The position numbers and the translations under genes are program-made. Source: an uncultured Pseudomonadota bacterium (GTDB lineage: Bacteria > Pseudomonadota > Alphaproteobacteria > RF32 > CAG-239). From it: 64,000 nucleotides of DNA. Numbering within the stretch: position 1 is the first letter of the stretch; the number at the start of each line of letters is the position of its first letter. Shown in pieces: positions 53,905 through 57,503 of the stretch. Under the pieces are notes generated by a model. That model did no database searches. It was given only the letters and a program-made list of their open reading frames with translations, and had not been told where the DNA came from. The stretch is from assembly GCA_902495305.1 (NCBI GenBank), contig CABUWG010000001.1:4784-68783 (forward strand), read 5' to 3'.

Positions 53905-55520
53905 CAGACTATAAACAGCAAACAAAAACACTTATTGATGAATTGAAGGCCATTTGTACGAGTAATGGTTTAGGTAACGATGGTAATGAGTTTAAAATCA
54001 TTACTCAAGTGTTTTTATACAAATACTTAAATGATAAATTTATCTATGAAATCAAGCAATCAGAACCTTCTTTAGCTAGTGCAGCTAATATTGATAACAA
54101 ATTAGCCAAGTATTCAGAAGATGATTATGAAATGCTTTTAATGGGACTACATCCGTCTGCAGCTAGACTTAAAAGAGAGCATTTTATATCATTTTTAGCT
54201 AATCACGCTAACGAAGACGACTTCCACAAACGTTTTGATGATACTTTGTTGGATATTGGTCGCTTTAACTCTGCTATATTTTCTATCAAAACAGATGGTG
54301 GAGCGCAAGTTGTAATGTTTGATGAATTATCGCAATTTATAACAGACCCGAGTAAAAGAGATGGATTTTGCCGAGCAGTAGTTGATCGTTTAACAGAATT
54401 TAGCTTTGAGCATGTTTTTGATGCTGGATATGACTTCTTTTCAACAATCTTTGAATATTTAATTAAAGATTATAACAAAGATGGTGGTGGAAAATATGCT
54501 GAATATTATACACCTCGTGCTGTTGCACGAATTATGGCAGCTATTCTTGTTGAAGGGCAACCGAAAAACATTAAGATTTATGACCCTTCGGCAGGTTCTG
54601 GTACTCTGTTGATGAGTTTGGCTCATGCTATTGGTGATAACAGATGCACTATATATTCTCAGGACATTTCGCAAAAATCGTCGGGAATGTTACGTTTGAA
54701 TTTGGTTTTAAACAATTTAGTAAGTTCTATTCCTAATGTAATTCAAGGTAATACAATATTAGCACCGCGCCATTTTGATAGAGATGGTAATTTAATGAAA
54801 TTTGATTATATTGTGTCAAATCCGCCATTTAAGTTAGATTTTAGTGATTTTAGAGCCAATCTTGATACGCCTGGAAATAATGAACGTTTCTTTGCGGGGA
54901 TACCAGCTATACCAAATAAGGACAAGGATAAAATGGCAATTTATTTGCTTTTTATTCAGCATATTATGTTTTCTTTGGCTGAAAACGGAAAAGCCGCTAT
55001 CGTTGTTCCAACTGGTTTTATAACAGCACAAAGCGGTATAGAAAAGAAAATTCGCGAGCGGCTGATAGAAAGACATTGGCTAAAAGGTGTTATTTCTATG
55101 CCTTCTAATATTTTTGCAAATACAGGAACAAATGTCTCTGTGCTTTTTCTAGATAAAACAAATCAAGATAAGGTAATCTTAGTTGACGCTAGCAAGCTAG
55201 GCGAAAAAGTAAAAGAAGGAAAAAACCAAAAGACAATTTTATCAAAAGCGGAAGAGCAAAAGATTATTGATGCTTTTCGTAACAAAGAAGCCATAGATGA
55301 TTTCTCCGTTGTTGTCAGCTATGATGAAATAAAGGAGAAAAACTATTCTTTTTCAGCTGGTCAATATTTTGACATTAAAATTGAATATGTTGATATTACA
55401 GCCGAAGAATTCAAGGCTAAAATGGATAGTTTTAAGGCTAATTTGAATGAATACTTTAAACAATCCAAGGAATTAGAAGAAGAAATCAATAAACAGCTGG
55501 AGAACTTAAAGTATGAGTAA
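53901..55520 (+). CDS. hsdM: Type I R-M N6-adenine DNA methyltransferase subunit
   Basis: 539 aa with an HsdM N-domain, the AdoMet motif DPSAGSGTLL and the catalytic NPPF. ATGA overlap with hsdR. Confidence 0.95.
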   Translation: MTDYKQQTKTLIDELKAICTSNGLGNDGNEFKIITQVFLYKYLNDKFIYEIKQSEPSLASAANIDNKLAKYSEDDYEMLLMGLHPSAARLKREHFISFLANHANEDDFHKRFDDTLLDIGRFNSAIFSIKTDGGAQVVMFDELSQFITDPSKRDGFCRAVVDRLTEFSFEHVFDAGYDFFSTIFEYLIKDYNKDGGGKYAEYYTPRAVARIMAAILVEGQPKNIKIYDPSAGSGTLLMSLAHAIGDNRCTIYSQDISQKSSGMLRLNLVLNNLVSSIPNVIQGNTILAPRHFDRDGNLMKFDYIVSNPPFKLDFSDFRANLDTPGNNERFFAGIPAIPNKDKDKMAIYLLFIQHIMFSLAENGKAAIVVPTGFITAQSGIEKKIRERLIERHWLKGVISMPSNIFANTGTNVSVLFLDKTNQDKVILVDASKLGEKVKEGKNQKTILSKAEEQKIIDAFRNKEAIDDFSVVVSYDEIKEKNYSFSAGQYFDIKIEYVDITAEEFKAKMDSFKANLNEYFKQSKELEEEINKQLENLKYE

Positions 55521-56253
55521 TTTATCTACGGCTGATAAACAATATTTAGAAAATGCACTAAGATTAGATAACAGTCCGCTAGTTCATTTTGATTTTCAAA
55601 CATTCTTTAAAGAGTTAGGCGTTGATATTGATAACCCTAAATATGCACAGGATGGAACCTCTAAGGCTGCACTTATGAGAAAGTTTTGGGAACTAGAGAG
55701 TAATTCTTTGGTAGGACGCTCAATTCTTGAATTAGCAGCATTATTTAGGAATTTAGAATTAAGAACCCCTATATCTGTAAAATTTAGTGTGGAAATTGAA
55801 AAAATAGGCCATAAGCTTATGATGTATGATGATGTAGAAATAAAACCTACTCGTAGTGAAAAGAATAACAATAATGAGTTAAAAATTGAATTGTGGCCTG
55901 AAATTTATAATCATGTGAAATCTTATTTAGATAATGAAGATTATTTTCATGCCGTAGAGGAAGGATACAAAATTGTTCGCCGTAAATTACAAGAATTAAC
56001 AGGTGAAGAACAAGCACATAAAGCCTTTAATGAAGAAAATTACGAAACAATCTTTGGGCACAAACCTCAAGATGCCATAGAAAGAGACTTTTTTGAAGGA
56101 ACAAAATTTTTGAATATGGCAATACAAAAATTCCGCAATGAAAAGGCTCACGATATTGCTAAACCATTAAATAGAAATATTGCTATTCACTATTTAGCAC
56201 TAACGAGTTTGGCTTATGATTTGATTACACGGAACGAGAAATCAAACAAATAG
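55513..56253 (+). CDS. TIGR02391 (Ymh)-like protein nested in the R-M operon
   Basis: 246 aa. The C-terminal half (YFHAVEEGYKIVRRKLQELTG..GTKFLNMAIQKFRNEKAHD) fits the TIGR02391 pattern. The N-terminal domain (FQTFFKELGVDIDNPKYAQDGTSKAALMRKFWE) resembles AbiJ-N-terminal-like modules. 8-nt overlap with hsdM. Confidence 0.6.
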   Translation: MSNLSTADKQYLENALRLDNSPLVHFDFQTFFKELGVDIDNPKYAQDGTSKAALMRKFWELESNSLVGRSILELAALFRNLELRTPISVKFSVEIEKIGHKLMMYDDVEIKPTRSEKNNNNELKIELWPEIYNHVKSYLDNEDYFHAVEEGYKIVRRKLQELTGEEQAHKAFNEENYETIFGHKPQDAIERDFFEGTKFLNMAIQKFRNEKAHDIAKPLNRNIAIHYLALTSLAYDLITRNEKSNK

Positions 56254-56264
56254 TGGAGAATGAA

Positions 56265-57503
56265 ATGAACGATATTTCACAAACTTTATTAAATAGGATA
56301 ACCGAGATAGAAAATCAGGTTAATTCTGATGATTATGTGAATGATTATGAGATATATAATAAACTAATAGCTACATTAAAAGCTATGGAAAATAGGATTA
56401 AAGCACAAAATCCGTTATTATTTAATATTCCCAATATAACAAATCCTATTCAGAATAGTCTTAGCAACCTCTTTGCATATACAAAGTCATTTGGTGATTC
56501 TAAAAATAGAAATTATATAAACAATATCAATGATACATTGAATGCATTAATACCTGCAATAAATACGATTCCAGCATCATTGAAAGGTGAAACAGCTACT
56601 AATCTAAATAAAATATTACAAGATTTTGAAAATAATAACACAGCTATAATTGAACAACTTATAAAAGAAAAAACATCATTTGAAACACAACTTACAGGAA
56701 TAAAAACACAAGTTACGACATTAGAAAAGAGAATAGAAACAAAAAATACTGAATTGGATAATATTTCAAGCAATCAACAAACTCAATTTTCAGCAGCTCA
56801 AGAAAAACGTTTAAATGAATTTGGTGATAAATTAAAAGAATTTGAAAGCAAGTATAGCGAACAAGAAACAAAACAATTAAAGAATTACACAACAACCTTT
56901 GATAATTTGAAAATTACAGCTGAGCAAAAATTACAGTCAATAGAAGAAATTAAGACTAAAATTGAAAAAATATATGATATTGTTGGTCAAGAATCTATTG
57001 TTGGTTCACAAAAAGCATATGCAGATAGAGCGGGTAAGTTTGCAGATAAATTATTCTTTTCAGCAATAAGTATTATGGCATTTGTAGCGATAATTGTTAT
57101 TTTTCCAATCATAGAAGCTCTGTGTAATAGCATTTTTGTCTTTGATCCAACAAAAACTTTTTCTAATTTAAATTGGGAAATAATGTTGTGTCGTTTGCCA
57201 ATAGCAGCATTGTTATTGTTACCTGCGTTTTATATGGCAAGTGAATCTAAAAGGCAACGAGATAAGGAAAACAAATATAGGGAACTTGAAATAAAAATGG
57301 CAGCGATAGAACCTTATTTCAATAACATTTGTGAAAAATGTAAAGATAACAATACGCAATTACCTGAAAAAGATGCTGTAAAATTAGAATTGGCAAAGGC
57401 ATTGCTTTCTCCGAACACAGAAAAAATAGATAACAATGTTATCATCCCTCCAGAGGTTTCAAGTTTAATAGAGAATATCGTAAAGGAGGTATGTAAAAAA
57501 TGA
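56265..57503 (+). CDS. Coiled-coil protein with C-terminal two-TM hairpin, nested in the R-M operon
   Basis: About 412 aa from ATG 56265 (GGAG RBS); an upstream GTG at 56253 overlaps the previous stop. A heptad-rich N-terminal stretch of ~240 aa is followed by two hydrophobic helices (FFSAISIMAFVAIIVIFPII; LCRLPIAALLLLPAFYMA) and a charged helix. ATGA overlap with hsdS. Confidence 0.6.
   Translation: MNDISQTLLNRITEIENQVNSDDYVNDYEIYNKLIATLKAMENRIKAQNPLLFNIPNITNPIQNSLSNLFAYTKSFGDSKNRNYINNINDTLNALIPAINTIPASLKGETATNLNKILQDFENNNTAIIEQLIKEKTSFETQLTGIKTQVTTLEKRIETKNTELDNISSNQQTQFSAAQEKRLNEFGDKLKEFESKYSEQETKQLKNYTTTFDNLKITAEQKLQSIEEIKTKIEKIYDIVGQESIVGSQKAYADRAGKFADKLFFSAISIMAFVAIIVIFPIIEALCNSIFVFDPTKTFSNLNWEIMLCRLPIAALLLLPAFYMASESKRQRDKENKYRELEIKMAAIEPYFNNICEKCKDNNTQLPEKDAVKLELAKALLSPNTEKIDNNVIIPPEVSSLIENIVKEVCKK

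Follow-up and report, generated by a model that had tools for sequence, protein, structure and literature searches.

We analysed a stretch of 64,000 nucleotides (nt) from an uncultured Pseudomonadota bacterium (GTDB lineage Alphaproteobacteria; RF32; CAG-239), hereafter the window, which corresponds to positions 4,784 to 68,783 of the forward strand of contig CABUWG010000001.1 (assembly GCA_902495305.1). The window holds a type I restriction–modification (R-M) operon in which two further genes, here called X and Y, lie between hsdM and hsdS. Our preferred reading, which we hold to be probable with guarded confidence, is that of a phase-variable type I R-M operon carrying two accessory defence genes that are co-transcribed with it and independent of each other. 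X and Y are both likely to have a role in defence. Backup defences embedded in restriction operons are known from PrrC and from 'guilt by embedding' screens; to our knowledge, few embedded genes are understood, and we know of no R-M guard that is a membrane protein.

Two genes between hsdM and hsdS

The operon comprises five genes:

50854..53904, + strand: hsdR, type I restriction subunit, 1016 amino acids (aa), with Pfam HSDR_N, SWI2_SNF2, ResIII and T1R_D3-like domains
53901..55520, + strand: hsdM, type I methyltransferase subunit, 539 aa (Pfam N6_Mtase, E=1.6e-67)
55513..56253, + strand: X, 246 aa, AbiJ-NTD-like N-terminal domain and Ymh/TIGR02391 HEPN domain, predicted RNase
56265..57503, + strand: Y, 412 aa, coiled-coil protein with a C-terminal two-helix membrane hairpin
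57500..58636, + strand: hsdS, specificity subunit, 378 aa (Pfam Methylase_S, E=8.3e-28)

A preliminary description of this DNA had reported five co-directional genes in the order hsdR-hsdM-X-Y-hsdS, and both the list of open reading frames (ORFs) and the raw sequence agree, with junctions that overlap or nearly abut. It had also stated that every junction overlaps. This holds for hsdR/hsdM and Y/hsdS, each an ATGA overlap, and for hsdM/X (ATGAGTAA), where the start of X overlaps the stop of hsdM by 8 nt, and probably does not hold for X/Y. At the latter, a GTG at 56253 shares 1 nt with the TAG of X and is followed by GGAG and then by an in-frame ATG at 56265. This ATG is the more likely start of Y, because the Shine–Dalgarno-like GGAG lies 6 nt upstream of it and most aligned Y homologues begin at the corresponding Met, so that X and Y are probably separated by a tight 11-nt gap. 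No terminator-like site was found on the + strand from hsdR to hsdS. The GC content of X and Y, overall and at third codon positions (GC3), is near that of the hsd genes, with Y slightly lower. The hsdR-hsdM-X-Y-hsdS arrangement is not a one-off, since it recurs in many gut metagenome contigs.

X is a predicted RNase of a described family

The TIGR02391/Ymh-like C-terminal half first noticed in X was confirmed by two profiles above their curated cut-offs, TIGR02391 (E=1.4e-26, 93 bits against a cut-off of 39.45, residues 128-242) and PF09509 Hypoth_Ymh (E=3.3e-13, 50 bits against 25). Two features of X were delimited:

55513..55827, + strand: N-terminal domain, residues 1-105, putative sensor/adaptor, highly conserved in 27 homologues
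56134..56151, + strand: Rx4H motif of the HEPN domain, R208-N-E-K-A-H213 (regular-expression match on the translation)

Alignment of 27 full-length homologues showed N209 and H213 to be invariant and R208 and E210 to be kept in at least 90%; the N-terminal 105 residues are conserved at least as well as the HEPN part. An AlphaFold2 (AF2) model of X is all-helical (mean predicted local distance difference test score, pLDDT, 82), with a C-terminal bundle at residues 129-245 (pLDDT ~90).

Ymh was placed in the HEPN superfamily of predicted RNases in 2013 by Anantharaman, Makarova, Burroughs, Koonin and Aravind, who gave its context as 'in operon with R-M', likened Ymh proteins in R-M neighbourhoods to PrrC/RloC, and listed solo forms as well as fusions to AbiJ-NTD1/2, AbiTii and paraMORC (PMC3710099). 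X belongs to this family by its hidden Markov model score and Rx4H motif, and shares its R-M operon context. It combines an Abi-type N-terminal domain with a Ymh HEPN domain, an architecture already published, and is a predicted HEPN-superfamily RNase with an intact Rx4H motif, which makes it the PrrC-like nuclease candidate of the pair. The X half of the locus is thus already in the literature, as to its family, its context and the PrrC analogy (PMC3710099), and our analysis of X mainly agrees with the 2013 prediction of an RNase.

The N-terminal domain of X has no Pfam match, so no particular AbiJ-NTD family was assigned; it is common to plasmid-encoded 'abortive infection family' proteins. 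Over residues 1-71, X shares 40% identity with the N-terminus of one of these, WP_172691877 (274 aa). Upstream of the gene for this protein, at a distance of two genes (~1.1 kb), lies a type II R-M pair made up of an Eco57I-like methylase and a BsuBI/PstI endonuclease. This gene and the R-M pair are found together on widespread mobilizable plasmids of Pseudomonas, Aeromonas and Klebsiella. On the Pseudomonas aeruginosa plasmid NZ_MF344579.1 (1-3825), the methylase and endonuclease are followed by two hypothetical genes and then by the abortive infection family gene.

Architecture and family of Y

Four parts of Y were distinguished:

56265..56579, + strand: N-terminal helical bundle, residues 1-105, putative sensor (AF2 helices, pLDDT ~85)
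56592..56993, + strand: long helix/coiled coil, residues 110-243, holding the FSxAQEKR motif (AF2 single helix, pLDDT ~90)
57039..57236, + strand: membrane hairpin (Kyte–Doolittle windows >1.6), transmembrane helix 1 (TM1) ~259-285, short loop, TM2 ~304-324
57237..57320, + strand: juxtamembrane signature E-S-K-x-Q-R-D-K-E-N-K-Y-R-E-L-E-I-K-M-A-A-I-E-P-Y-F

The long helical region and two-helix hairpin originally proposed for Y were both recovered. The AF2 model (pLDDT 73) consists of a helical bundle (residues 1-100), an unbroken helix of ~130 residues (110-243), two long helices with hydrophobic segments and, finally, two short helices. Hydropathy places the hydrophobic segments at ~259-295 and ~304-326. 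Both flanks of the hairpin are rich in K and R, which implies an N-in/C-in topology with both termini predicted to be cytoplasmic.

Conservation was read from two alignments, one of the close subfamily (A1) and one of 47 diverse members (A2), the latter of which proved too divergent to be used in pattern scans. Variability is greatest in the N-terminal bundle (mean identity 42% in A1), and the juxtamembrane block is the best conserved of the family (88% identity in A1, 55% in A2). A variable N-terminal domain with a highly conserved membrane-proximal motif is the pattern expected of a sensor and effector engaged in an arms race. The layout is kept throughout A2, whose members have ~400-450 aa with an N-terminal helical domain, a long helix and a two-TM hairpin, and are clearly homologous through the hairpin. 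They share a stalk motif FQxQFSxAQExR (FxxQFSxAQExR), GxxKxYAD before TM1, and, directly after TM2, the signature [LIV]P[AG]xYxAxE[SA]xKxRxxExxxRxxExKx5PY, to which the Y of the window conforms.

Searches of Pfam, NCBIfam, PADLOC and PHROGs assigned Y to no family and returned only low-scoring coiled-coil noise; its relatives (10 distant ones, then the 47 diverse ones) matched no curated family there either. The noise matches of Y and its relatives were to spectrin, Rad50, the ZorA tail, LeoBC, LmuB and JetC. LeoBC was matched by 15 of the 47 relatives (best E=2.4e-8) and the PADLOC candidate model PDC-S06 weakly by one (E=2.7e-5), which may reflect coiled-coil composition or distant homology. 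Sequence searches of the PDB with Y gave coiled-coil proteins only. Y is not a confident match to any housekeeping family in these libraries. PADLOC v2 candidate models gave no convincing match to X or Y.

The size of the family became apparent with profile searching. A word-indexed search yielded no more than 35 clusters (≥35% identity), and searching the word-indexed database with the A2 profile did not reach the distant relatives. The profile search of 1.84 billion representatives returned 2,399 matches at E≤1e-3, 1,393 at E≤1e-10 (a count that coiled-coil composition may inflate in part, as it may the scores of weaker matches) and 105 at E≤1e-30; nearly all have 360-510 aa and align end to end. 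On this evidence, Y is a member of a large unnamed family. Relatives carry public names such as 'hypothetical protein' (a RefSeq relative), 'nucleoporin' and 'archaellum component FlaC'. With Y as the tblastn query, no match was obtained in 72,556 plasmids and 50,697 phage records; a distant relative used as the query matched only two Geobacillus-group plasmids, annotated as hypothetical. A scan of GTDB species representatives gave a single locus.

Our literature search on TIGR02391, on ORFs between hsdM and hsdS and on membrane or coiled-coil R-M companions found nothing describing Y. The preliminary description had known of no account of X and Y as a system, and this stands, the search having brought up only the 2013 HEPN paper, which bears on X. 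Y is new in two respects: its protein family is outside the curated libraries searched, and its membrane architecture has not been reported for R-M companions.

Y relatives are found next to restriction genes of several types

R-M genes (type I, type III, IIG-like or Mrr) lie adjacent to Y or within 1 kb of it in ~9 of 14 distinct non-prophage architectures, a small sample gathered by pattern scans that is non-random and not a statistic; the remaining architectures are defence-island or mobile-element settings. The suspected tie between Y homologues and R-M or defence loci is supported by this sample, and the context of Y is far from the expectation for a housekeeping gene.

On the type I backbone of the window, Y occurs in hsdR-hsdM-X-Y-hsdS, in hsdR-hsdM-Y-147aa-hsdS (locus L007) and in hsdR-hsdM-Y-hsdS, the lineage to which locus L025 belongs. 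The 147-aa ORF between Y and hsdS in L007 (6267-6710) has no family match, and the window has nothing at this place. In the Y-only sister operons L007 and L008, X is absent, HsdR and HsdM are 76-83% identical to those of the window (50854-57503), and Y is only 46-50% identical; Y therefore diverges or is swapped far faster than the R-M backbone.

Other Y relatives adjoin other restriction systems. An hsdR of yet another lineage directly follows a relative of 32% identity (L018). In an IMG/VR contig (L028, 2839-9263), a Y-family gene directly follows and abuts mod in a type III-like cluster res-248aa-mod, with a convergent SNF2 helicase adjoining. Elsewhere, a TaqI_C specificity-domain gene overlaps a Y relative by 4 nt, a convergent Mrr stands beside another, and a cluster of MmeI/Eco57I-like methylase, C5 methylase and HNH genes begins ~0.7 kb downstream of a further one. 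Across most architectures, the junctions to R-M genes overlap or abut.

Among the settings free of R-M genes is L005 (280-8288), where a relative of 37% identity follows a helix-turn-helix (HTH)+SocA_Panacea gene and two small ORFs and lies 1.3 kb upstream of a Gabija-like pair (OLD nuclease and UvrD helicase). Relatives also adjoin an FRG-domain gene or a Schlafen AlbA_2/HATPase_c_4 gene, or lie after or between integrases. The distant members from viral contigs (n=15, non-redundant) are all in prophage accessory regions, with serine recombinases, CI/CII-like regulators and ApeA-HEPN, Fic, ParE and PLD genes as neighbours.

An all-against-all comparison of the ±2 neighbours of Y identified no recurrent partner besides the hsd genes and X. 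The small ORFs that might replace X in Y-only loci (147 aa in L007; 141 aa and 127 aa in L005) have no family match and no mutual similarity. As no partner gene recurs, Y is probably autonomous.

X and Y are linked but separable

X relatives lie within type I R-M loci in five of the six architectures seen. Two of these include Y, namely hsdM-X-Y-hsdS as in the window and hsdR-Y-X in L017. Three lack it: X-hsdR-hsdM-RhuM/Fic-hsdS; hsdR-183aa-X-HNH in a type I/GmrSD island; and X-hsdM-hsdS-hsdR. The sixth is a stand-alone copy without R-M genes, in an island with AbiE. In L011 (7001-13886), the X homologue is directly upstream of hsdR-hsdM, a RhuM+Fic/DOC gene precedes hsdS, and Mu-like transposition genes adjoin.

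L017, from an uncultured rumen proteobacterium, has the order hsdM (with an HsdM_N domain)-hsdS-hsdR-Y-X, with an ATGA overlap between Y and X. Its HsdR and HsdM are 22-24% identical to those of the window, whereas X is 62% and Y 56% identical, and the order of X and Y is swapped. Judging by these identities, X and Y were transferred jointly to an unrelated type I system.

Since natural Y-only and X-only operons exist, an obligate X-Y pair is disfavoured, and we consider X and Y to be probably two stacked autonomous modules.

Comparison with known systems

PrrC is a latent suicide anticodon nuclease encoded in the EcoprrI type I R-M locus, held in check by the R-M enzyme and triggered by a phage anti-restriction peptide. 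Like PrrC and its relative RloC, X is an accessory gene embedded in, and co-expressed with, type I hsd genes, and the nuclease domain of PrrC also belongs to the HEPN superfamily. The two differ in that PrrC has an N-terminal ABC-ATPase, whereas X (246 aa) has an AbiJ-NTD-like N-terminal domain instead. Neither X nor Y contains a Walker A motif (G-x4-GK[ST]) or matches an ATPase family in Pfam or NCBIfam; without an ATPase motif, X is not a member of the PrrC family. PrrC/RloC have been proposed as a model of how Ymh proteins encoded in R-M operons function (PMC3710099; PMC12707154). Y has no counterpart in the prr locus, and a membrane coiled-coil partner is not part of the published Ymh description (PMC3710099).

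For Y, the nearest likenesses are the two-TM effectors (SLATT; the two-TM effectors of CBASS, Pycsar and retrons; AbiZ), which share a membrane hairpin in a defence context and a presumed role in membrane damage or abortive infection. Y differs from them in having its own cytoplasmic helical domain of 250 residues, and the neighbour comparison revealed no partner gene producing a nucleotide signal. No Pfam SLATT match was found for Y (E≤0.1) or 10 relatives (E≤0.01), and neither Y nor the 47 relatives matched the PADLOC models of AbiZ, CBASS or Pycsar effectors. With ZorA of Zorya, Y shares its membrane location, a long coiled coil on the cytoplasmic side and the defence context. The matches of Y to the ZorA models of PADLOC and NCBIfam (E=1e-5 to 1e-3) are far below the 250-bit cut-off and involve only tail positions of the models; unlike ZorA, Y has no MotA/ExbB/TolQ domain and no ZorB partner, and its two TM helices are at the C-terminal end.

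'Guilt by embedding' has been described for unrelated defence genes nested in R-M, BREX, DISARM and Hma systems (Payne et al. 2024). Such embedded genes, and the rlo/mlo ORFs of Campylobacter hsd loci, resemble X and Y in being nested in a multi-gene immune operon.

Proposed mechanism of two independent accessory defences

Our guarded confidence in the preferred reading extends to the following mechanism. Where restriction fails, X and Y would provide a second line of defence. In X, the N-terminal domain would sense infection and unleash a latent HEPN RNase on cellular or phage RNA, leading to translation arrest. Y would be a single-polypeptide module in which the variable cytoplasmic bundle and the coiled-coil stalk sense a signal and oligomerise, after which the conserved hairpin and juxtamembrane helix would disturb the inner membrane and cause abortive infection or exclusion. 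Tight translational coupling to hsdM and hsdS would tie the dosage of X and Y to that of the R-M subunits and may bring them into physical contact with these. We only infer the RNase activity of X, the membrane disruption by Y, the trigger and any guarding by the R-M enzyme; for Y, the mechanism is drawn from anatomy, conservation pattern and context.

Several observations weigh against this reading. The HEPN fold of X has weak structural support, as the top Foldseek matches in the PDB are HEPN proteins (Csx1-Crn2 8y7f; AF_0298 2hsb, TM-score 0.57) and are not significant (E of at least 0.2). In the AF2 model of Y, the TM and C-terminal region is of low confidence (pLDDT 45-65), and Foldseek on that model gave no usable match (best E=0.55), with no similarity to a known pore-former or effector. 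The possible inflation of the Y family count and the small, non-random context sample, both mentioned above, count on the same side.

Y is nevertheless a good candidate for a second-line anti-phage gene on the strength of its family and context: with ~1,000+ sequence clusters, the family is unnamed in Pfam, NCBIfam and PADLOC, and yet it is tightly coupled to type I, type III and IIG-like restriction genes and also occurs in prophage accessory slots. If Y is indeed a defence gene, both the single-gene system and its effector architecture would be new. Nearly identical operons that naturally carry X+Y, Y alone or X alone constitute a ready-made experiment on the cooperation of stacked defences.

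Alternative explanations

The alternative that fares best, although we regard it as unlikely, is a guard in the manner of PrrC. X, Y or both would be silenced on the HsdM/HsdS/HsdR complex, and Ocr, ArdA or Stp would free the RNase or membrane effector and kill the cell. The embedding of X and Y between hsdM and hsdS with overlapping junctions, which would provide stoichiometric co-expression, fits such a guard, and so do the shared superfamily of X and the PrrC nuclease domain, on which the published analogy rests (PMC3710099), the coupling of Y relatives to methyltransferase or restriction genes of type I, type III and IIG-like systems, and the transfer of the X-Y cassette into an unrelated type I system. 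That transfer also speaks against it, as a protein docking on HsdM/HsdS is not expected to cross between backbones only 22-24% identical. In addition, X lacks the ABC-ATPase regulatory domain that controls PrrC, with no Walker A motif, and many members have no R-M neighbour (X in the AbiE island; Y in prophages, beside Gabija and at integrases) and must therefore work or be controlled without an R-M partner. Of the initial suggestion that X-Y is a PrrC-analogous module, the recurrent association with R-M systems and the HEPN nature of X are retained, and an obligate two-gene X-Y system is unsupported.

A broader version, which we find improbable and somewhat more so than the PrrC-like guard, makes Y a widespread class of single-protein membrane 'R-M companions', general guards of R-M systems that would differ mechanistically from PrrC and PARIS. 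The stalk of Y would monitor restriction or methylation complexes (types I, III and IIG) or a shared consequence of their failure, and the hairpin would collapse the membrane potential once restriction is blocked; a stacked HEPN RNase would make the abortive response two-pronged. R-M-free members of the families are many, which argues that R-M is not required for control.

More doubtful again is the view that Y does not kill. EcoKI associates with the membrane, and Y could be a membrane tether that places restriction complexes where phage DNA enters, or an exclusion factor that blocks injection like the Sie proteins of prophages. Its predicted cytoplasmic termini and long stalk suit this role, as do its coupling to several different R-M types and the occurrence of distant relatives close to repressor and integrase genes in the accessory regions of prophages, where exclusion genes are usually found. 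Nevertheless, a tether specific to one R-M type is not expected beside types I, III, IIG-like and IV alike, nor in R-M-free loci, and the best-conserved part of Y, the hairpin and juxtamembrane motif, is not a plausible surface for R-M docking.

We give least credence among these four alternatives to an obligate two-component system for which the R-M operon is only a vehicle; Y, for example, would be the membrane sensor or anchor, and X the RNase effector. Two architectures, with different gene order and unrelated R-M backbones, have X next to Y, and in L017 the two overlap by ATGA, as such a pair might. However, Y occurs without X in sister operons (76-83% identity to the window in HsdR and HsdM), X occurs without Y in three other type I loci and at one stand-alone site, and the all-against-all comparison found no other recurrent Y neighbour able to replace X. 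A toxin-antitoxin reading of X-Y was rejected, because no MNT-type or other antitoxin-like feature was seen and X and Y are separable.

The hsdS shufflon and the surrounding island

Downstream of and within hsdS, three further features were identified:

58620..59231, − strand: inverted partial hsdS copy, silent (HsdS profile match)
58030-58137 / 59164-59271: 108-nt inverted repeat, 91% complementary
59316..59909, + strand: serine invertase, resolvase family, which probably shuffles hsdS (homologous 198-aa genes in loci L001-L004 carry PF00239 Resolvase)

From the inverted partial hsdS, the inverted repeat and the serine invertase, we conclude that window positions 57500-59909 are, by their sequence organisation, a phase-variable hsdS inversion shufflon. 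L001-L004 carry the same operon with differing hsdS arrangements, as expected of active switching.

A DUF3800 gene lies 340 nt upstream of hsdR (window 49876-50514), and another lies ~2 kb downstream of the Y-X pair in L017 (11939-12790); DUF3800 may be a third recurrent passenger of these islands. No tRNA gene was found in the window. A large serine recombinase is encoded just upstream of the R-M island (47933-49678) and a small resolvase/invertase downstream (63135-63740). In nr, sequences closely related to the island bear the label 'Caudoviricetes sp.', and the region as a whole resembles an integrative mobile element.

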